From contig JBBQUR010000016.1 of assembly GCA_038212275.1 (NCBI GenBank), forward strand, positions 51,403-115,402: DNA of 64,000 nucleotides, written 5' to 3'. The position numbers and the translations under genes are program-made. This DNA is from Planctomycetota bacterium. Its GTDB lineage: Bacteria; Planctomycetota; B15-G4. This document shows positions 14,433 to 23,926 of the stretch, in pieces. Positions within the stretch are counted from its first letter, which is position 1; the number at the start of each line of letters is the position of its first letter. Under the pieces are notes generated by a model. The model was not told the origin of the DNA. It saw only the letters and a program-made list of their open reading frames with translations, and ran no database searches.

Positions 14433-15599
14433 GTGATCCTGAACACCGTGAAGACCGCGATGCTGCCGCTGCGCCCGCTGCTGTTCGTCCTCGCGCTCAC
14501 AATGCTTGCGGGCAGCCTGCGTGCCGACACCATCACGATGTTCGACGGCACGGTGATCGACGGCGTGCGCGTCAAGACCGAGTCCTGGGAGAAGGTCGAG
14601 TACCTCAAGCCCAAGGTGACGACGCTTCAGAGCGCCCAGTCGGCGGACGTGAAGGACGTCGTGTACGGCCAGACGAGCAAGGACTACATCGCGGCCCTCG
14701 CGCTGATCGACGAGGGCAACGTCGTCGACGCCACGCGTTACTTCGAAGCGGTCTTCAGCGACGAGTCGCTGCCGGAGCCGCTGCGCGCGGCGGCCGGTGC
14801 GGAGCGCGCCGATCGCCTCCTGTCGATCGGGCAGCTCGACCTGGCCCTCGATGCCTACGGCCAGCTCCTGACCGCCTTCCCCAACACTCGCCAGCTGCCG
14901 CGCGCGCTGCTGGGCAAGGGCCGCGCGCTGTTCTTCAAGAAGCTCAACGACGAGGCCCGCACGGCCTTCGAGAAGCTGAAGTCGGAAGTGGACGCCAAGA
15001 AGCTCGGCGAGCTGTGGCTCATGCAGGCCGACTACAACCTCCTGCTCCTCGACGAAGTGTCGGGCGGCAAGCCCGAGGAGACCGCGAAGGGCTACGAGGC
15101 CCTGCGCAGCGCGGCGGGCACGCGCTTCCCGCTCATCGCGAGTCAGGCGGAGCTCGGTCTTGCCCGCGCCAACTTCGCCGCCCAGAAGTACGACGCGGCG
15201 CTGCCGCTCTACGAGGACATCATCGACAAGCGGCTGGATTCATCGAAGGACATCGTGGCCGCCGCCTTCAACGGCCGCGGGCAGATCAACTTCGCGGTGG
15301 CCGGAGCGGCGATCGAGCGCTCACAGAAAGCCGGCGCCAAAGGAGACAAGGCCAAGGCCGATTCGGAACACGAGAACGCGATGGAGGCCTACGCCGCCGC
15401 GCGGCTCGACTTCCTGCGAGTCGTCACCAGCTATCCGGACGTGGTCGCGCAGCAGCCCGACGCGATGTATTACGCCGCGCAGTGCTTCATCAACATCGGC
15501 GGACCGGACTCGGACGCCCGCGCCCGGTCGCTGCTCGCCCGCTGCGCGCAGCGGTATCCCGAGACCGCGTCGGGCAAGAAGGCAGCCGCCGCGAAGTGA
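14433..15599 (+). CDS. Exported tetratricopeptide-repeat protein
   Basis: Signal peptide (LRA-DT) and helical TPR-like repeats (AFPNT, SYPD...AMYYAAQ). The start could be 14460. Confidence 0.8.
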   Translation: MILNTVKTAMLPLRPLLFVLALTMLAGSLRADTITMFDGTVIDGVRVKTESWEKVEYLKPKVTTLQSAQSADVKDVVYGQTSKDYIAALALIDEGNVVDATRYFEAVFSDESLPEPLRAAAGAERADRLLSIGQLDLALDAYGQLLTAFPNTRQLPRALLGKGRALFFKKLNDEARTAFEKLKSEVDAKKLGELWLMQADYNLLLLDEVSGGKPEETAKGYEALRSAAGTRFPLIASQAELGLARANFAAQKYDAALPLYEDIIDKRLDSSKDIVAAAFNGRGQINFAVAGAAIERSQKAGAKGDKAKADSEHENAMEAYAAARLDFLRVVTSYPDVVAQQPDAMYYAAQCFINIGGPDSDARARSLLARCAQRYPETASGKKAAAAK

Positions 15600-15624: not shown

Positions 15625-16308
15625 GTGAAGAGCTTCCGCGTCTCGCCGCTGCTGCCGCGCTCGTCGCTCGAGGCCTTCGGCTTCGACTTCTTTCACGGCC
15701 TGTTCCGGCTGGTGCTGCGCACGCTGTACCGCATGAGCCTGGCGGACACGCGCGCGCTGCCGGACGGCGCCGTGATTCTGGCCGCCAATCACCGCTCCTT
15801 CATCGACCCGCTCGTGCTGGGCCAGGCCACCGAGCGCCGCACCACCTTCATGATGAAGGGCAAGTACTACGACCTGCCGGCGCTCAACTGGTTCTTCCGG
15901 ATGTCGCGCTGCATCATCGTGGATTCCGAGCGCGATAATCGCTCGACGCTGCGCGCGGCGAAGGAGGTGCTGGAGGCGGGAGGCGTGCTGGGCATCTTCC
16001 CCGAGGGGCACATCTCGGACGACGGCAACCTGCAGGCGGGGCAGGCAGGCGTCGCGTGGCTGGCGCGCCGCACCGGAGCGCCGGTCTATCCCGTGCACCT
16101 CGGCGGCACGCGCGAGGCGCTGAAGAAGCGCGACAAGCGGATGCACCTGTCGCATGTGACGATGCGAGTGGGTGAGCCGCTCTCCATCGCGGACTACCCC
16201 GACACGCGCGAAGGCGCCGAGGCCTTCACCGTCGCGCTCATGCAGGCGATCCGCGAGCTGGGAGCGCCCCGCGCAAGCCGCGCCGGCTCGCCGCGCAACG
16301 CCGCCTGA
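15625..16308 (+). CDS. 1-acyl-sn-glycerol-3-phosphate acyltransferase (PlsC family)
   Basis: ANHRSFID (HX4D) and IFPEG motifs. GTG start inferred. Confidence 0.88.
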   Translation: MKSFRVSPLLPRSSLEAFGFDFFHGLFRLVLRTLYRMSLADTRALPDGAVILAANHRSFIDPLVLGQATERRTTFMMKGKYYDLPALNWFFRMSRCIIVDSERDNRSTLRAAKEVLEAGGVLGIFPEGHISDDGNLQAGQAGVAWLARRTGAPVYPVHLGGTREALKKRDKRMHLSHVTMRVGEPLSIADYPDTREGAEAFTVALMQAIRELGAPRASRAGSPRNAA

Positions 16309-16808
16309 ATCGGCCGTGCCGTAGCGTGCCGTAGCGCGTGCCGTGCCTTGGTGTGCCGCGGTGCGGTCTGCAGCGGCGACGGCAGCGACGGTTATTTCCT
16401 CGTGTCGGCGCCATCAGGTCTCCACTCCGTGCGGGGTCGGTTCGAGGACGCGGAGCAGGCGATGGCGCAGGGGGCGGCGCGCGTGGACACACGAGTGATC
16501 GGAGGCGCGTGATGATTTCGCGGGAGGGGGCTGAGGCTGTCGGCGTGACGCCGAGAACAGGCAGCCAGGAAGCTGGTGTATCGCCCAGCGAACTGTCGGC
16601 AGAACGGTGCGGCGCCGCGACCTGCGATCTGCGCGGTGAGCACCCCGGCCATGCCCCCTGCGGCGCGCCCGGCAGTGAGCCCGGCCCTGCGCCTAGCCTT
16701 GCGCCCCGCCCTGCGCCCGGCCTTGCGTCCGGCGATCCGGCCGGCGACGCGCCCGGCGATGCGCCCCGCAGCGCGCCGACCGACGTCACCGGCGATGGCG
16801 TGGGGGGG

Positions 16809-17369
16809 ATGGATGAGCCGGCGTCGCCTTCGGTGCCGCAGGTGCCGGAACGGGAGCTGCAGCGCAGGCTGCTGTGTTTCGCGCGGCGCTTCCTCCGCGA
16901 TCGGACGGAGGCCGAGGACGTCATGCAGGAGACGCTCCTGCGGGCCCGGCAAAGCGAAACCCGGCTTCGGACTCCGGAGCGGGCCGAGGCCTGGTTGTTC
17001 CGTATCTGTCGACACGCCGCCATCGACCATCGGCGGGCTCGCAGAGTGCGGGAGCGGGTCTGGCATCCACTGACCGAGGAGCGTGCCGAATGCGCGGCTG
17101 CGGTGCCGGCAGCGCCCGCGGGCCATCCGTCGGCCCGGGTCGTGCGCGTCCTGCGAAGCCTTCCGGCGCATCACCGGGTGCTCATGAGCCTGCATTACGA
17201 GCGCGGCCTGCCGCAGGGGGCGATCTGCCAGTTGACCGGCCTGTCCACCTCCGCGCTGCGAGTCCGGTTGTTTCGCGCGCGCGGCGCGCTGTCGACGCGA
17301 GGCGGCACGGGCGGCACGGGCGGCTCGAGCGGCCATGGCGTCAAGCGCGAACGACTCGCGGGCCGATAG
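16809..17369 (+). CDS. ECF RNA polymerase sigma factor
   Basis: AEDVMQETLLRA, WLFRICRHAAIDHRR, and region 4 LP...LRVRLFRAR. Start uncertain because the ORF is open from 16338. Confidence 0.85.
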   Translation: MDEPASPSVPQVPERELQRRLLCFARRFLRDRTEAEDVMQETLLRARQSETRLRTPERAEAWLFRICRHAAIDHRRARRVRERVWHPLTEERAECAAAVPAAPAGHPSARVVRVLRSLPAHHRVLMSLHYERGLPQGAICQLTGLSTSALRVRLFRARGALSTRGGTGGTGGSSGHGVKRERLAGR

Positions 17370-17441
17370 AGAGCCGTCCATGTCAGCGGCCTGTGGGGCG
17401 TGCCGTCCGGGCGGCCCCACGTTTCCGGGCACCACCACGCC

Positions 17442-18935
17442 ATGCTCTCCGCCTCCCACGGGGCCAAGCGCGCTCTCGAACTCGTCGCAGCGACGCTTGC
17501 GCTCGTCCTTCAGCTGCCGCTCGTTCCGATCGTGGCGCTGGCCATCGTGGTCGAGTCGCGCGGGCCGGTCTTCGTGCTCCGCCCCGCGGTGGGCGTGCAG
17601 CTTCGGCGGCCGCGCGCGGGCAGGGACGTCTCGGACCACCCGCGTCGCGTGCACGACGTCGGCGGCGCGCTGCTGCGGCTGCCCGAGTACCGGCTCACCA
17701 CGGTGCCGCGCGACGGGCAGCCCGCCCGGCTCACCCGGGTGGGCCGGCTGTTGCGCAGGACGCGACTCGCACAAGGTCCCCGCTTCCTCAGCGTGCTCCT
17801 CGGAGACCTCGCGCTGGTCGGCACGCGACCGCTTTCGCCGCAGTGCGTCGCGGAGCTGCGGGCGCGCGTGCCGGGCTGGGACGCACTGCTCGTCGGCCTG
17901 AAGCCCGGCCTTTTCGGGCCGGCGCAGGCGCAGGGTCGGCTCGGTGGCGGATGGGTCGCCGCGCTGCGTGACCGCGTGCTCTTCGAGGTCGATTACGCCG
18001 AGCGACTGTCGCATGCCACTCGTGTGCGCGACGTGCTGGCGCTCGACCTGTCGGTGGTGCGCGCGTGCTGCGCGCGCGCGCTGAGATCGCGCGTGCCGCT
18101 CGGGCACGAAGTCATCCGGATCGACGCGCCGTCGCAACTGCAGCAGGCGTCCGTGGACGTGCGGGCGCTTCTCCGGCCTGCCGGCAGCGGGCTCGCCGAT
18201 TCCGGCGTGCCGCGCCGCGGGCCGTCGGTGGAGCTGCACCAGCACGGCGCGCGGCTCACGGCCTTCTGGTATCCACCGCGACACCTCTCGCTGCACCGGT
18301 CGCTGCACCGGCCGACTGTCCGCCAGCCGGTGGCGCTGGGTCGGGCGGCTGCCATCGACCTGCTGCACACTGCCGACGAGCCGTTCGAAGCGCGCTGGGT
18401 CGTGCCCGAGGAGCGTCGCGATTGCCAGCTTCTCGTCGTGCACGCGCTGCGTGCAGACGGCGCGACGGCGACGCTGCCCCCCGACGAACTCCACGTGGAC
18501 CTGCCCGGCGGCTTGCACGAAGTGGCGCGCCTCTGCGAGCAATTCCTGCCGCTGTGGGAATCGTTGGGCCGCCGGCGCGGCGATGACGCGCTGCCGAACC
18601 GCGTGACGCGCCTGATGCTCGCCGGATTCTCGCGCCTCGCGGCGGGCCGGGAGGACGGGCGCATCACGCTCGACGTGCACGTCGCCGGGGACCGCATCGT
18701 GCTGCAGTTCACGGCACAGCTTCCGCTGCCCGGCCTGACCGAGCGGAGTGAGCAGCCGCTGCCGCGCATGGTGCTCGCGCCGTCGCTCGGTGCGGTGCCC
18801 GTGATGGCCGGCATGCCCGCGGCACTGGCCACGCCGGCGCCTCACCGGTCGCAGCCGCAGGCTCACGTGCCGGTCCCGTCACCCGCGCAGACGCAGGCGC
18901 TGAACCCTTCGCGACCGCCCTTCAGGCCGCACTGA
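17442..18935 (+). CDS. Divergent bacterial sugar transferase (monotopic PGT) domain fused to an unknown C-terminal region
   Basis: KRALE, ESRGPVF, RLTRVGRLLRRTRL, GDLALVGTRP and KPGLFGPAQ match the WcaJ/PglC family, but the catalytic DE reads AQ. About 280 extra C-terminal residues follow. Confidence 0.75.
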   Translation: MLSASHGAKRALELVAATLALVLQLPLVPIVALAIVVESRGPVFVLRPAVGVQLRRPRAGRDVSDHPRRVHDVGGALLRLPEYRLTTVPRDGQPARLTRVGRLLRRTRLAQGPRFLSVLLGDLALVGTRPLSPQCVAELRARVPGWDALLVGLKPGLFGPAQAQGRLGGGWVAALRDRVLFEVDYAERLSHATRVRDVLALDLSVVRACCARALRSRVPLGHEVIRIDAPSQLQQASVDVRALLRPAGSGLADSGVPRRGPSVELHQHGARLTAFWYPPRHLSLHRSLHRPTVRQPVALGRAAAIDLLHTADEPFEARWVVPEERRDCQLLVVHALRADGATATLPPDELHVDLPGGLHEVARLCEQFLPLWESLGRRRGDDALPNRVTRLMLAGFSRLAAGREDGRITLDVHVAGDRIVLQFTAQLPLPGLTERSEQPLPRMVLAPSLGAVPVMAGMPAALATPAPHRSQPQAHVPVPSPAQTQALNPSRPPFRPH

Positions 18936-19051
18936 AGCGTCGCGTCGCGTCACGCGCGTGGCGTGGCGCCGTGCGCCTCTCGGTGCGGCCTCGCCGTGCA
19001 CCTTGCGGGGGCTTCCCTTCGGCGCGGGCTGGCAGACACAATGCCCGGCCC

Positions 19052-20707
19052 ATGACCCGCCTGCACAGCACCTACGTCCGCGATGAGACCTCGGCCCGCG
19101 CCGCCCGCAAGACCTGGGCGCGCATGCTGGAGAGTTACGACCAGCAGGAAGCGAAGCTGCGCGAGGGCGGCGGCGCCAAGGCCATCGAGCGCCAGCACAA
19201 GAAGGGGCGGCTCACCGCGCGCGAGCGGATCGCGCTGCTGCTCGACAAGGACACGGAGCTGTTCGAGCTGGGTCTCTTTGCGGCGCACGGCATGTACGCG
19301 GAGTGGGGCGACGTGCCCGCCGCGGGTGTCGTCGCCGGCATCGGCACGGTGGCCGGCCGCCGCTTCATGATCATCGCGAACGACGCCACCGTGAAGGCGG
19401 GCGCGTTCTTCCCGATGACCGCCAAGAAGGTCATCCGCAACCAGCGCATCGCGCTCGACAACCACCTCCCGGTGCTCTACCTCGTGGACAGCGCGGGCGT
19501 CTTCCTCCCGCTTCAGGATGAGGTCTTCCCGGACGAGGACGACTTCGGGCGCGTCTTCCGCCACAACGCCGTGCTCTCCGCGCAGGGCATCAGCCAGACG
19601 GCCGCCATCATGGGCAGCTGCGTCGCCGGCGGCGCCTATCTGCCCGTCATGTGCGACACGCTGCTCATGACCGAGGGCAGCGGCCTGTATCTCGCGGGCC
19701 CCGCGCTGGTGAAGGCCGCCATCGGGCAGGAAGTGGACAGCGAGACGCTCGGCGGCGTCGGCATGCACAGCGCCGTGTCGGGCACGGTGGACTTCCGCGA
19801 GAAGGACGACGAGGCCGCTATTGCGCGGCTGCGCGCCATCGCGGGGCGCCTCGGGCCTGCAGGCCCCGCGCCGTTCAACCGCATCAAGGCCCGGCCGCCG
19901 CGCCTCGACGCCGAGGAGCTGGCCGGCATCGTCCCGCTGGAGGGCGGCAAGGGCTACGACATGCGCGAGGTCATCGCGCGCCTCGTGGACGACAGCGATT
20001 TCGACGAATACCGCGCCGAGTACGGCCGCACGCTGGTGACCGGCTTCGCGCGGCTGGGCGGCTGGGCCGTCGGCATCGTCGCCAACCAGCGCATCAACTC
20101 CATGAGCGCCGAGCACGGCATGGAGTTCGGCAGCGTGATCTACACCGAGAGCGCCGAGAAAGCCGCGCGCTTCATCATGGACTGCAACCAGAACCGGCTG
20201 CCGCTCGTGTTCCTGCACGACGTGTCGGGCTTCATGGTCGGGCGCGACGCGGAGCACAGCGGCATCATCAGGGCGGGCGCCAAGATGGTGAACGCCGTGG
20301 CCAACAGCGTGGTGCCGAAGATCTCCGTGATCGTCGGCGGCAGTTTCGGCGCCGGCCATTACGCGATGTGCGGCCGGGCCTACGACCCGCGCTTCCTCTT
20401 CGCGTGGCCGTCGGCGCGCTACGCCGTGATGAGCGGCGACGCCGCGGCCAAGACGCTGGTGGACATCCGCGTGGCGCAGCTCGAGCGCGACGGTCACCCC
20501 GTCGATCCGGACGGCCGCGAGAAACTGCTGCGCGAGACCAAGGCCCGCTACACCGAGGCGCAGGACCCGCGCTACGGCGCCGCGCGCCTCTGGGTGGACG
20601 CCATCATCCGCCCGGCCGACACGCGCGCCGCGCTCATCACCGCACTGGACGTCGCCGCGCTGAACCCCGACGTCCCGCCCTTCCGCACCGGCGTGCTGCA
20701 GTGCTGA
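19052..20707 (+). CDS. Acyl-CoA carboxylase carboxyltransferase (beta) subunit, methylcrotonyl-CoA carboxylase-like
   Basis: GRLTARERI, ANDATVKAG, LVDSAGVFLP, GSCVAGGAY, GGSFGAGHYAMCG. Confidence 0.93.
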   Translation: MTRLHSTYVRDETSARAARKTWARMLESYDQQEAKLREGGGAKAIERQHKKGRLTARERIALLLDKDTELFELGLFAAHGMYAEWGDVPAAGVVAGIGTVAGRRFMIIANDATVKAGAFFPMTAKKVIRNQRIALDNHLPVLYLVDSAGVFLPLQDEVFPDEDDFGRVFRHNAVLSAQGISQTAAIMGSCVAGGAYLPVMCDTLLMTEGSGLYLAGPALVKAAIGQEVDSETLGGVGMHSAVSGTVDFREKDDEAAIARLRAIAGRLGPAGPAPFNRIKARPPRLDAEELAGIVPLEGGKGYDMREVIARLVDDSDFDEYRAEYGRTLVTGFARLGGWAVGIVANQRINSMSAEHGMEFGSVIYTESAEKAARFIMDCNQNRLPLVFLHDVSGFMVGRDAEHSGIIRAGAKMVNAVANSVVPKISVIVGGSFGAGHYAMCGRAYDPRFLFAWPSARYAVMSGDAAAKTLVDIRVAQLERDGHPVDPDGREKLLRETKARYTEAQDPRYGAARLWVDAIIRPADTRAALITALDVAALNPDVPPFRTGVLQC

Positions 20708-21515: not shown

Positions 21516-22502
21516 ATGAGCCAGTTGAACGACGCGTCCGCCACCGTTGCCGTCTGCGAGACGCTGCGCGACGCGTGGCAGGGGCTGCCACACGTGGTGC
21601 CGACCGCGCAGAAGATCGCGTTCGCGCAGCGGCTGCTCGACCTCGGCTTCACGCGGCTGGACGTCGGCTCCTTCGTCTCGCCGCGGCGCGTGCCGACGAT
21701 GGCGGACACCGAGGCACTGCTCGCCGGACTGCGCGTGCCGGCCGGCGCGCGGCTCACGGCGCTCGTCGCCAGCGAGTCCGGGCTGCAGCGGCTGCTCGCC
21801 GCGCGCTGCGCAAGTGGCTGCGCGACCGCGGGCACCAACGCGGGCACCAACGCGGGCACCGCCGGCGGCGCGACCGTTGGCACGACCAGCGGCGCGACCG
21901 CAGGCGGCCCCGGCGTGAGCGAGGTCCTGTATCCGTTCTCATTGTCCGAGACCTTCCAGCGCCGCAACACCGAGCGCGGACGCGCCGAGGCCTTCGCGCT
22001 GCTGGAGTCCGTCGTGTCCGGCGCGCACGGCGCGGGCCGCACGGTCTACGCCACCATCTCCATGGCCTTCGGCAACAATGAGGGCGACGCCTTCGATCCG
22101 GTCGAGCTGCGCGAGTGGGTGGCGCGCATGCACGCCGCCGGGGTCGATCGCGTGGGGCTCGCGGACACGACGGCGATGGCCACGCCGCAGAGCATCGCCG
22201 CGATCTACGCGGCGGTCATGCGCGATGCGCGCTGGCCCGTGCCGGGCGCCCACCTGCACGTCTCGGCGCAGAACCAGCGCGTCCTCGTGGACGCGGTGCT
22301 CGACGCCGGCTGCCGCGATCTTGACGCGGCGCTCGGCGGTCTCGGCGGCTGCCAGTTCGCGAAGGGCGCGCTGAGCAACGTGTCCACGCTGCCGCTTGCA
22401 CGACATCTCGCGGAGCGCGGGCTGCGGCTCGACCTGCCGGCCGCCGCGCTTGCCGCGCTGCCCGAGCTGGACGCCGCCGCGCAGGCGCTCGCGGCGGGAT
22501 GA
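21516..22502 (+). CDS. Hydroxymethylglutaryl-CoA lyase
   Basis: RDAWQG, GSFVSPRRVP, LADT, HLH, GGLGGCQFA, NVST. Confidence 0.88.
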   Translation: MSQLNDASATVAVCETLRDAWQGLPHVVPTAQKIAFAQRLLDLGFTRLDVGSFVSPRRVPTMADTEALLAGLRVPAGARLTALVASESGLQRLLAARCASGCATAGTNAGTNAGTAGGATVGTTSGATAGGPGVSEVLYPFSLSETFQRRNTERGRAEAFALLESVVSGAHGAGRTVYATISMAFGNNEGDAFDPVELREWVARMHAAGVDRVGLADTTAMATPQSIAAIYAAVMRDARWPVPGAHLHVSAQNQRVLVDAVLDAGCRDLDAALGGLGGCQFAKGALSNVSTLPLARHLAERGLRLDLPAAALAALPELDAAAQALAAG

Positions 22503-23926
22503 GCAGTTCGTCTGGCGACGCTCGCGCGCCGTCGAGTGATCGCGGCAGCGACGGCGGCGGCGACGACGGCGGCGACAGCGGCCGCGCGCGCGTCGGTCGC
22601 TCCGCGTGGGGTGCGTGGGCGCTCCTGGTGGCCGTGGGCATCGCGATCGTTCTCGTGGTGCCTCGCTCGGAGTGGTTCCAGATCAGTTTCCTGCCGGCGG
22701 CGTATGCGGACTCGGACTACGAGCTGCACTGGGCCGCGTCGCAGGCGCTGATCCGCGGACAGGATCCGTACGACCAGGAGACCGTGGCCCCGTTCGGCGC
22801 CGCAACGGGCCGGACGTACACGCCCTTCTGCGCCGCGTTTCCGCTCATGGTGCGCCTGTTCGCGCTGACGGGCGGCAAGGACGTCGAGCACTTCGAGGAG
22901 GGTTATCGCGCGACGCGGGCGATCAACCTCGGGCTGCTGCTGGTGTCGGTGCTTCTGCTCGCGGGAGTTCTCCGGAACGCGACGTGCGGACGCGCCTCCG
23001 TGCACGCTGCCGCGGCGCTTGCGGCTGCGGCGGGCCTGCTCGCGTTCAACGACGGCACGTGGATGGCGCTGCACTACAACCAGCTCAACTTCCTCGCACT
23101 CGCGGCGGTGTGCGGCGCGCTCTGCGCGGCGCAGCGCGGGCGGCCGGGCGCCGAGGGCGCGTTGCTCGCGGTCGCCGCGCTGGCCAAGACCTCGCCGGCG
23201 CTGCTCATCGTCGTCGCGGCGATGGCGGGGCGCTGGCGCACGGTGCGCGCGGCGGCGCTCACGGCCGTCGCTCTCGGGGCGTTGTCCGTGGCGTGGAACG
23301 GATGGGCCGCGCACGTCTCGTGGCTGGCCATGGTCGACCGCGAACTCGGATACGTCGCGACGTTGCGCCCGGGCTTCTTCAACAACAGTCTTCACGCGTG
23401 GAATCTGTCGCCCAACGGCGCGTTGTCGCGGGCCGGCAACGTGGCTGGCTGGTCTTCGGCCATCGTGCGCGCCGCCGTGTGGGCCGTCACGGTCACGGTG
23501 CTCGCGACGCTCTGGATCGCCGTGCGCCGCTCCGTGACCGCCGGCCGCAGCCGCGCCGACAGCGGTGATGCCGAGGCCCGTGCGCTCGCGGCGCGCATCC
23601 TGTTCGCGCAGTACGCGCTGGGCGTGTGCGCGTCGGTGCTCGTGTCGAGCGTGACGTGGAGTCCGCATCTCTCGCTTGCCGTGGTGCCGGCCCTGTGGTT
23701 CGTGCAGATCTCGTGGTCGGGGCCCGCGCCTCACGTGAAGGCCTGGTTGCTGGCCGGCGGGCTGGCCTACGCGATGCTCTGTCTGCCGCTTGGCACCTTC
23801 GGCACGCCATGGGATGTGCGCCGCGACGTCGACCTCAAGCTCGCCGCGTGCGCGCTGCTTTTCCTGGCGACGTGGTTCCTGGCGGCCGACGAGCCGCTCA
23901 ACTCTCCGCGCCACGGCGGCCGATGA
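22499..23926 (+). CDS. GT-C fold glycosyltransferase (GT87/DUF2029-like)
   Basis: SDYELHWAAS...GQDPY, NQLN, LAKTSP, TWSPH and multiple TM helices. Confidence 0.75.
   Translation: MSSSSGDARAPSSDRGSDGGGDDGGDSGRARVGRSAWGAWALLVAVGIAIVLVVPRSEWFQISFLPAAYADSDYELHWAASQALIRGQDPYDQETVAPFGAATGRTYTPFCAAFPLMVRLFALTGGKDVEHFEEGYRATRAINLGLLLVSVLLLAGVLRNATCGRASVHAAAALAAAAGLLAFNDGTWMALHYNQLNFLALAAVCGALCAAQRGRPGAEGALLAVAALAKTSPALLIVVAAMAGRWRTVRAAALTAVALGALSVAWNGWAAHVSWLAMVDRELGYVATLRPGFFNNSLHAWNLSPNGALSRAGNVAGWSSAIVRAAVWAVTVTVLATLWIAVRRSVTAGRSRADSGDAEARALAARILFAQYALGVCASVLVSSVTWSPHLSLAVVPALWFVQISWSGPAPHVKAWLLAGGLAYAMLCLPLGTFGTPWDVRRDVDLKLAACALLFLATWFLAADEPLNSPRHGGR

Follow-up and report, generated by a model that had tools for sequence, protein, structure and literature searches.

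The 64,000-nucleotide stretch of DNA analysed here (the window; contig JBBQUR010000016.1, positions 51,403 to 115,402) comes from an uncultured sediment bacterium of the Planctomycetota. Directly downstream of the gene of a sigma factor of the extracytoplasmic function (ECF) type, it carries a gene encoding a fusion protein, called here the pseudo-PGT. The NH2-terminal part of this protein, judging from alignments and a structural model, has retained the scaffold of monotopic phosphoglycosyl transferases (PGTs) and lost their catalytic chemistry. The COOH-terminal extension ends in a degenerate half-domain of the type found in the anti-sigma factors RsbW and SpoIIAB. It is no isolated case of gene decay: related genes are found at the same position in 12 loci of one family-level clade. 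Our preferred interpretation, which we put forward tentatively, is that the pseudo-PGT is a lineage-specific regulator with a new domain architecture that acts as a dispensable modulator of the ECF pathway.

The open reading frame (ORF) spanning positions 17400-18935 (511 residues) matches the Pfam family Bac_transf (PF02397) over residues 23-207 (75.2 bits; cut-off 27). In nine of 10 orthologs the start codon is located 8 codons ahead of a [KR]R.LD motif, and the gene therefore probably starts at ATG 17442, for which the position of the ortholog starts argues more strongly than for GTG 17400. The pseudo-PGT gene thus spans 17442-18935 (+) and encodes a protein of 497 residues (P0001), in which the PglC-like monotopic PGT domain corresponds to residues 1-214 (17442-18083, +). 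NCBIfam PGT models (TIGR03025, TIGR03023 and others) all score below their cut-offs, the best match reaching 84.4 bits versus 295.55. A full-length AlphaFold model obtained from a 10-sequence alignment (predicted local distance difference test, pLDDT, 68.5; predicted template modelling score, pTM, 0.68) features an NH2-terminal helix of 38 residues (residues 2-39; pLDDT ~90) followed by a PglC-like core. Within the PGT fold, the membrane helix predicted to be re-entrant, which is also supported by the PglC alignment, covers approximately residues 9-39 (17466-17558, +). Foldseek searches with the same model retrieved PglC (8e37_A, E 2.6e-7, TM(target) 0.74), as well as 8g1n and WbaP (8t53). The PglC/WcaJ scaffold proposed in the first-pass annotation is thus supported by both the Pfam match and the predicted fold.

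For PglC, PMC12802240 describes catalysis by the D93-E94 dyad together with K59, R88 and R111, and assigns to D11, P24 and D168 a role in supporting the re-entrant helix. A phmmer search of PDB sequences aligned the pseudo-PGT to PglC 8g1n (E 7e-6). In this alignment, A110-Q111 (17769-17774, +) are placed beneath the Asp-Glu dyad (LAQGPR versus LDELPQ). In family alignments, the lysine of the KFRTM signature is aligned with E82, within the sequence PEYRLT. Both signatures had been noted as lost, and the alignments bear this out. Residues R105 and R129, which correspond to R88 and R111 of PglC, are retained, as is P26. The two Asp positions that support the helix are occupied by Glu in the window copy and by Asp in at least 90% of the 10 orthologs; one of these residues, E13, is found at the position of PglC D11. 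In addition, the PGT domain hosts an Arg-rich family-specific insertion (RVG.QRR......RR.HD..G; residues 52-74, 17595-17663) that WbaP and PglC lack and for which disorder is predicted (pLDDT <50).

Loss of the dyad is a feature of the family. Among 24 aligned family proteins, in all of which Pfam places Bac_transf ahead of the COOH-terminal module, the Asp-Glu dyad is present only in P0038, a member of a small sister clade described below. The first position of the dyad is occupied by Glu in 16 proteins, by Asp in 4, by Ala in 3 and by Val in one, whereas the second is free to vary (G, R, D, S, H, P, A and Q). Despite the loss of the dyad, the VGPR and PG motifs and P26 are retained across the family. 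Homologs with the same fusion and the same loss, which the first-pass annotation had named as a point to check, therefore exist in number.

The extension that follows the PGT domain is 283 residues long (residues 215-497), matching the ~280 extra residues noted initially, and the final ~69 residues (429-497) are predicted to be disordered (pLDDT <50). Ortholog alignments and a model of the COOH-terminal module delimit a family-specific middle sub-domain (residues 215-347; 18084-18482, +). It is followed by the degenerate NH2-terminal half of an RsbW/SpoIIAB-type HATPase_c_2 domain (residues 348-426; 18483-18719, +), and by a Pro-rich predicted disordered tail (residues 427-497, plus the stop codon; 18720-18935, +), as indicated by pLDDT values and ortholog lengths. 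Pfam searches with 10 COOH-terminal modules gave no match. The nature of the half-domain emerged from P0038, which is encoded by a metagenome-assembled genome of Ca. Eiseniibacteriota (OZ244990.1) and is matched by the 210-residue profile of the COOH-terminal module (A2) at E 1.5e-22. P0038 scores 188 bits with Bac_transf and has intact KFRTM, IDELPQL and PGITG motifs. Residues 376-445 of the same protein match Pfam HATPase_c_2 with 41.8 bits (cut-off 27.4) and include both an N-box (EAITNVVKHA) and a G1 box (DYGPGFD). A sub-profile made from the last 80 columns of the alignment of 10 clade orthologs matches P0038 residues 349-428 by itself, with 54.1 bits and an E value of 3.7e-10, scaled to the entire library (Z = 1.84e9). 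On these sequence comparisons, residues 348-426 of the window protein are homologous to the HATPase_c_2 region, transitively through P0038. The claim that the extension ends in an RsbW-type remnant devoid of the N-box can thus be maintained.

Three other proteins, P0055, P0056 and P0057, carry both Pfam domains. They are 44-46% identical to the COOH-terminal query of P0038 and 57-61% identical over the full-length alignment, and the automatic JGI name of P0056 joins a glycosyltransferase to an anti-sigma regulatory factor. All four intact relatives end ~25-35 residues past the G1 box, which indicates that HATPase_c_2 was already a half-domain, lacking the G2 box and the ATP lid, in proteins with intact motifs. 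Because the truncation is found in all four, the half-domain is probably an old and conserved module suited only for binding. In the window copy, the position of the N-box reads LMLAGFSRLAA and no DxGxG G1 box is found, although both boxes are kept in P0038 and P0055-57. The last folded element of the window protein is the strand pair downstream of the N-box helix, and the ATP-lid half is absent.

A model of the COOH-terminal module alone, obtained from a 31-sequence alignment (pLDDT 83.7, pTM 0.82), predicts for residues 348-426 a strand, three helices (model residues 147-153, 155-165 and 170-187) and two further strands. Foldseek searches with this model yielded no match at E ≤1e-3, the weak matches being to FliM/CheX and to the NH2-terminal domain of Hsp90, and a second fold search of the PDB gave nothing above Z 4.7. 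In a VIA search against all representatives, in which the best Z was ~5, model residues 131-212 superposed on the NH2-terminal halves of four RsbW-type proteins found among the tied top matches. These are RsbW 6m36_A (Z 5.0; root-mean-square deviation, rmsd, 1.8 Å over 73 residues), UsfX 8ih8_C (Z 4.9; 1.9 Å over 78 residues), SpoIIAB 1l0o_A (Z 4.2; 2.0 Å over 78 residues) and Rv1364c 3ke6_B (Z 4.1; 2.5 Å over 79 residues). The top named clusters in an ESM Atlas feature search were HATPase_c_2, with values of 0.86-0.87 that fall under the 0.9 level and provide a lead only. An hhalign comparison of the COOH-terminal profile with the RsbW-like protein encoded by the same genome was not significant (E 0.18), with the alignment in the expected register. 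A family profile (A4) retrieved PGT chains only, and no HATPase chain, from PDB sequences. We accept the RsbW-like assignment because of the sequence bridge through P0038, with which the structural and language-model results are consistent, if weakly.

The middle sub-domain (~130 residues) is marked by the motifs GN[DE]VIR..P and WWYPxR, and no clear fold was assigned to it in the Foldseek or VIA searches with the COOH-terminal model. The first-pass annotation had placed here a degenerate SpoIIE/PP2C end, which we do not confirm. No Pfam match to PP2C was found in the window protein or in the COOH-terminal modules, and the sequence proposed as a remnant (RRDCQLLVVH) falls partly within an insertion restricted to the window copy and has no conserved Asp. 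A six-frame search of the genome with PF07228 matched two other loci and not that of the pseudo-PGT. The sole PP2C-type fold match was SpoIIE 3t9q_B (Foldseek E 0.16, TM 0.13), with only ~130 residues available. Insertions unique to the window copy are located at approximately residues 250-260 (~18185-18215) and residues 312-328 (~18375-18425); the latter holds the RRDC sequence. The 71-residue Pro-rich tail (18720-18932) is also a feature of this copy, orthologs being 74-103 residues shorter overall, and may have originated from the loss of a stop codon.

The upstream gene (16809-17369, +; 186 residues) is, by sequence, an ECF sigma factor gene. The ORF ending at 17369 matches Sigma70_r2 (49.9 bits) and Sigma70_r4_2 (30.7 bits) and passes the general ECF model TIGR02937 (64.6 bits, cut-off 42.9), and the start at ATG 16809 agrees with the ortholog alignment. 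ECF orthologs (alignment A5) are 48-56% identical. The sigma-2 and sigma-4 regions are conserved, the sequence EAWLFRICRHAAID is nearly invariant, and the linker between the two regions is variable. An open frame of 157 codons, rich in Pro, Ala and Gly and of low complexity, extends upstream of the ATG (16338-16808, +). Since orthologs begin near an RRRL motif, this segment is probably an untranslated leader or an open frame due to the high G+C content. No 5-mer/4-mer dyad that could mark an ECF-type promoter is common to at least 6 of the 10 upstream regions of ECF orthologs analysed.

The two genes are separated by a 72-bp spacer (17370-17441, +). The only terminator-like site in the 16200-19100 interval is found at 16859-16872, inside the ECF gene, and the spacer has none; co-transcription is therefore plausible. 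The pseudo-PGT gene lies directly after the orthologous ECF gene, on the same strand, in 11 of the 12 loci, and the association with an ECF neighbour pointed out in the initial annotation is thus conserved. In ten of the loci, the distance between the two genes ranges from an overlap to ~490 bp; in L023 it is 1.66 kb. In L016 and L024, an extra 1.8-5.8 kb lies between the pseudo-PGT gene and the carboxyltransferase (CarbT) gene, with no such insertion on the ECF side. Across three relatives, the extra segments measure 1.7-5.8 kb (L016, 8270-10074; L023, 5141-6802 and 8030-11628; L024, 7958-13764) and are mostly found between the pseudo-PGT and CarbT genes.

Members of the family are rare. A word-index search with the whole protein gave a full-length match only to the query itself, the other matches being ordinary PGTs. 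The orphan status suggested by this search was overturned by six-frame searches of related genomes, which gave matches over residues 2-450 at 29-39% identity, and by exhaustive profile searches. The A2 profile detected the COOH-terminal module as a single copy in 11 of the 16 genomes of the taxonomic family and, in a 401-genome sample of the phylum, in 7 genomes, all of the same family. An exhaustive HMMER search of 1.84 billion representative sequences found the module in only 30 of them (E ≤0.001), and in all 27 matches of at least 306 residues it is located in the COOH-terminal part. The nine loci that we fetched share genes for XdhC, a TPR protein, an acyltransferase, the ECF sigma factor, the pseudo-PGT and the carboxyltransferase, as far as contigs reach. 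Even for the most divergent match, P0045 (E 3e-8), the six-gene synteny is preserved on the metagenome contig of origin, where CarbT is 74% identical, indicating that the family essentially consists of one fast-evolving gene, at one locus, in one clade.

The interpretation that we tentatively prefer is as follows. The pseudo-PGT would be a membrane-anchored pseudoenzyme that combines a PglC-type fold and its re-entrant helix but does not carry out covalent, Asp-dependent phosphosugar transfer. The PGT domain would be followed by a cytoplasmic module of 210 residues ending in the NH2-terminal half of an RsbW/SpoIIAB-type fold, and the gene most likely shares a transcript with the ECF gene upstream. 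Since the membrane fold and a protein-binding remnant are kept, and both the nucleophile and the ATP site are lost, the protein would act by binding instead of catalysis. The dead PGT pocket may keep the protein on the membrane and might have polyprenyl phosphate or a nucleotide sugar as a ligand. The half-domain derived from RsbW may bind the ECF sigma factor itself or a STAS-type protein. Genes for possible partners are found elsewhere in the genome, and include five STAS, two SpoIIE-type and one clear RsbW-like gene. The net effect would be an extra, dispensable layer of control on the ECF pathway. A co-fold of the ECF sigma factor with residues 1-430 of the pseudo-PGT scored 0.00, against a mark of 0.32 and with no controls, and speaks neither for nor against binding. 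A more specific version, in which the pseudo-PGT senses polyprenyl phosphate or nucleotide sugars in the inner leaflet and holds or releases the ECF sigma factor through the truncated RsbW-derived domain, seems to us quite unlikely. If true, it would couple lipid-carrier status directly to transcription and define a new class of ECF regulator derived from a dead enzyme.

Several observations weigh against a regulatory role. The main one is that the COOH-terminal module is missing from 5 of the 16 family genomes, which are 86-92% complete. These five genomes keep an intact orthologous ECF gene (49-60% identity by tblastn), located roughly 20-110 bp from the CarbT gene. In a midpoint-rooted tree of the CarbT and XdhC proteins, in which close kin do not count as independent, the presence/absence pattern corresponds to 4 changes by parsimony, at least 3 of which are forced by well-supported branches, and G003 differs from its sister G014 by one loss. 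The window belongs to a clade with a Shimodaira-Hasegawa-like approximate likelihood ratio test (SH-aLRT) value of 100 whose other three members all lack the pseudo-PGT. Because the gene is present in every major branch, ancestral presence followed by repeated loss is the simplest reading of the tree. Moreover, the linkage is broken in G011, a genome 58% complete, in which no ECF gene is found within 1.68 kb upstream of the pseudo-PGT gene. There, a minus-strand gene for a FAD-type oxidoreductase occupies the upstream position, and the ECF ortholog, interrupted by an in-frame TGA, lies on another contig. The loci involved are L125 (G011:C81) and L022 (G011:C59), the latter being 9.9 kb long and only 57% G+C, and their separation could reflect either an assembly problem or a real uncoupling. 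The P0038 gene, the only one among those of the intact relatives with a readable context, is flanked by genes for a tRNA synthetase and a large FlgD_ig/CBM protein and has no ECF neighbour. The RsbW-like assignment has weak points as well. Neither the window protein nor the 10 COOH-terminal modules match HATPase_c_2 (PF13581) directly, a six-frame search of the genome with the same model gave no match at the pseudo-PGT locus, and the structural similarity to RsbW-type proteins does not exceed Z 5 and is tied with that to unrelated alpha/beta folds. RsbW-type domains are known as partners of group-3 sigma factors, not of ECFs. Finally, the window copy is one of the more degenerate: it matches 41 of the 54 columns conserved in the family and ranks 22nd of 24. 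Since five family genomes keep the ECF alone, a strict obligatory sigma/anti-sigma pair is unlikely; the only Pfam family found in the window protein is Bac_transf, and no recognisable anti-sigma domain (ASD, zf-HC2, RskA and others) was detected.

Repeated loss of a gene next to an intact ECF is easier to reconcile with a member of the ECF regulon than with a cognate anti-sigma factor. The pseudo-PGT could thus be mere operon cargo that acts on the initiation of envelope glycoconjugates with no feedback on the sigma factor, for instance through sequestration of polyprenyl phosphate, or by binding to the two active PGTs of the genome and modulating them. The presence in the genome of two canonical PGTs (222 and 218 bits) and of a gene for a GT87 membrane glycosyltransferase 3.6 kb downstream is in line with this hypothesis, as are reports (PMC12802240) that large monotopic PGTs form dimers and are regulated by protein partners. 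The hypothesis does not explain, however, why a half-domain of anti-sigma type has been retained, and no polysaccharide cluster is found in the ORFs scanned; we regard it as rather unlikely. It is more difficult still to envisage that the pseudo-PGT is an enzyme that uses non-canonical residues for phosphosugar transfer or for a reaction related to it. Many orthologs do have an acidic residue at the first position of the dyad, and R105 and R129 are kept. Yet the Ala-Gln pair means that neither position of the dyad is acidic in the window copy, the lysine of KFRTM is replaced, the second position of the dyad is unconstrained and the NCBIfam PGT models remain far below cut-offs, making this hypothesis highly improbable.

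The pseudo-PGT may also be a decaying relic, i.e. a once-active PGT-HATPase fusion whose function was lost in the ancestor of the clade, its adjacency to the ECF gene being inherited synteny. Catalytic and ATP-binding motifs are lost, the gene has been lost independently at least 3 times, including from the closest relatives of the window, and the median length of terminal branches is 0.84 substitutions per site, versus 0.17 for CarbT and XdhC, corresponding to a ~5-fold faster evolution. Pairwise identities are mostly 25-38% for the pseudo-PGT and 65-80% for its neighbours. The insertions of the window copy, its 71-residue tail, its GTRP in place of the GPRP of the family and its low conservation rank point in the same direction, and adjacency alone is weak evidence, since the entire block from XdhC through the TPR protein, the acyltransferase, ECF and, where present, pseudo-PGT to CarbT is syntenic. 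Other data are difficult to reconcile with decay. ORFs are intact at all loci examined, down to a CarbT identity of ~70-80%: all nine fetched orthologs (394-423 residues) are uninterrupted, L118 encodes the 395-residue P0045, and L124 aligned as a single high-scoring segment pair. The family motifs WWYPxR and LW..LA.R..D are conserved, and the proportion of G+C at third codon positions (GC3) is coding-like throughout. The terminal branch of the window copy (0.84) equals the family median and is thus not accelerated. The closest pair, L018/L019, from the same genus, is under purifying selection (pN 0.14-0.21, pS 0.56-0.68, dN/dS ~0.15 in both domains), although dS is near saturation in this pair and the other ortholog pairs, being saturated, are uninformative. 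Neutral decay, against which the first-pass annotation had suggested a dN/dS analysis, is therefore not what this pair displays, and we consider a relic unlikely.

Long ORFs occur in every frame of the window because the G+C content of the 64-kb region is ~72%. The pseudo-PGT frame has a GC3 of 0.82-0.97 and a G+C content at second codon positions (GC2) of 0.45-0.60 over its entire length, which identifies the plus-strand frame as coding. An antisense ORF of 824 codons (16392-18866, -) spans both genes, has no support and is a high-GC artefact. Pfam searches of nine neighbouring ORFs identified XdhC, TPR, acyltransferase, carboxyltransferase, MOSC, HMGL-like and GT87 proteins. None of the scanned ORFs belongs to a polysaccharide cluster, in agreement with the initial remark that no exopolysaccharide cluster is adjacent. 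The GT87 membrane glycosyltransferase gene mentioned above (22499-23926, +; 475 residues, 58.3 bits) is located beyond the carboxyltransferase, MOSC and HMGL-like genes. GT87 enzymes use polyprenyl-phosphate sugars. The TPR protein is encoded two genes upstream of the ECF gene (14433-15599, +). It exhibits 32-50% identity across loci and evolves nearly as fast as the pseudo-PGT, and its gene is missing from L122 (G006). This protein could be another lineage-specific partner of the ECF/pseudo-PGT locus.

Work on monotopic PGTs has treated them as the enzymes of the committed first step in the synthesis of bacterial glycoconjugates. Full-text literature searches revealed no paper that pairs a phosphoglycosyl transferase with a pseudoenzyme or an anti-sigma factor, or Bac_transf with an ECF. 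We likewise found no description of a catalytically dead PGT or of a PGT/anti-sigma-type fusion, although a PNAS survey of PGT fusions was outside the scope of that search. The terms 'sugar transferase', 'HATPase' and 'RsbW' do not occur in the main text of the ECF re-classification paper. The predicted combination of a dead enzyme domain with the COOH-terminal module appears to be a new domain architecture, confined to one uncultured clade. If the ECF sigma factor were indeed controlled by the pseudo-PGT, the locus would represent a new wiring of envelope-precursor status to a sigma factor, and would clearly exemplify an enzyme that became a regulator, with the intact sister clade at hand as a reference. 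Should the gene be only dispensable cargo or a relic, it would remain a minor, lineage-specific oddity of a single uncultured family.

Comparison with known systems helps to define what is peculiar to the pseudo-PGT. The closest counterparts are Campylobacter concisus PglC and the WbaP catalytic domain, which share the predicted fold including the NH2-terminal re-entrant helix (E 2e-7, TM(target) 0.70-0.74). Also shared are the residues corresponding to R88 and R111, the Pro that breaks the helix, and two motifs, VG.R and PG. In contrast, Asp93-Glu94 of PglC is changed to Ala-Gln and K59 is replaced, and the window protein has in addition an 18-residue Arg-rich disordered insertion and the 283-residue COOH-terminal extension. 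The window gene adjoins an ECF sigma gene and is not part of a glycan cluster.

RsbW, SpoIIAB and UsfX kinases provide the second term of comparison. The last 80 folded residues of the window protein are homologous, via P0038, to positions 24-89 of the HATPase_c_2 profile, and the NH2-terminal halves of RsbW-type proteins superpose on the half-domain with an rmsd of 1.8-2.5 Å, but with a Z of only 4.1-5.0. Unlike these kinases, the window copy has a half-domain only, with no N-box, G1, G2 or ATP lid, which is fused to a membrane protein, and the neighbouring sigma factor is an ECF and not a group-3 sigma. The intact fusions P0038, P0055, P0056 and P0057 have the same three-part architecture as the window protein, and the two groups share the motifs WWY.PR and LW..L..RS.D and the truncation soon after G1. 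The intact fusions differ in keeping the KFRTM, IDELPQL and PGITG motifs, the N-box (E..N..KHA) and G1 (DYG.GF). We found no study of these intact fusions in the literature.

Class I and class II anti-sigma factors of ECFs are likewise encoded directly downstream of the sigma gene, in the same direction, and are membrane-associated. The window protein differs from these, as it matches no anti-sigma or zinc-finger Pfam family and is predicted to be monotopic, and would consequently have no extracytoplasmic sensor; moreover, its partner ECF occurs without a gene of this type in 5 of 16 relatives. Last, in the EpsW-EpsZ pair of Myxococcus xanthus (PMC12802240), a signalling protein regulates a monotopic PGT, which sets a precedent for these enzymes as nodes of protein-protein regulation. 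In that system, an active PGT is the regulated target, whereas in the window a dead PGT would itself regulate.

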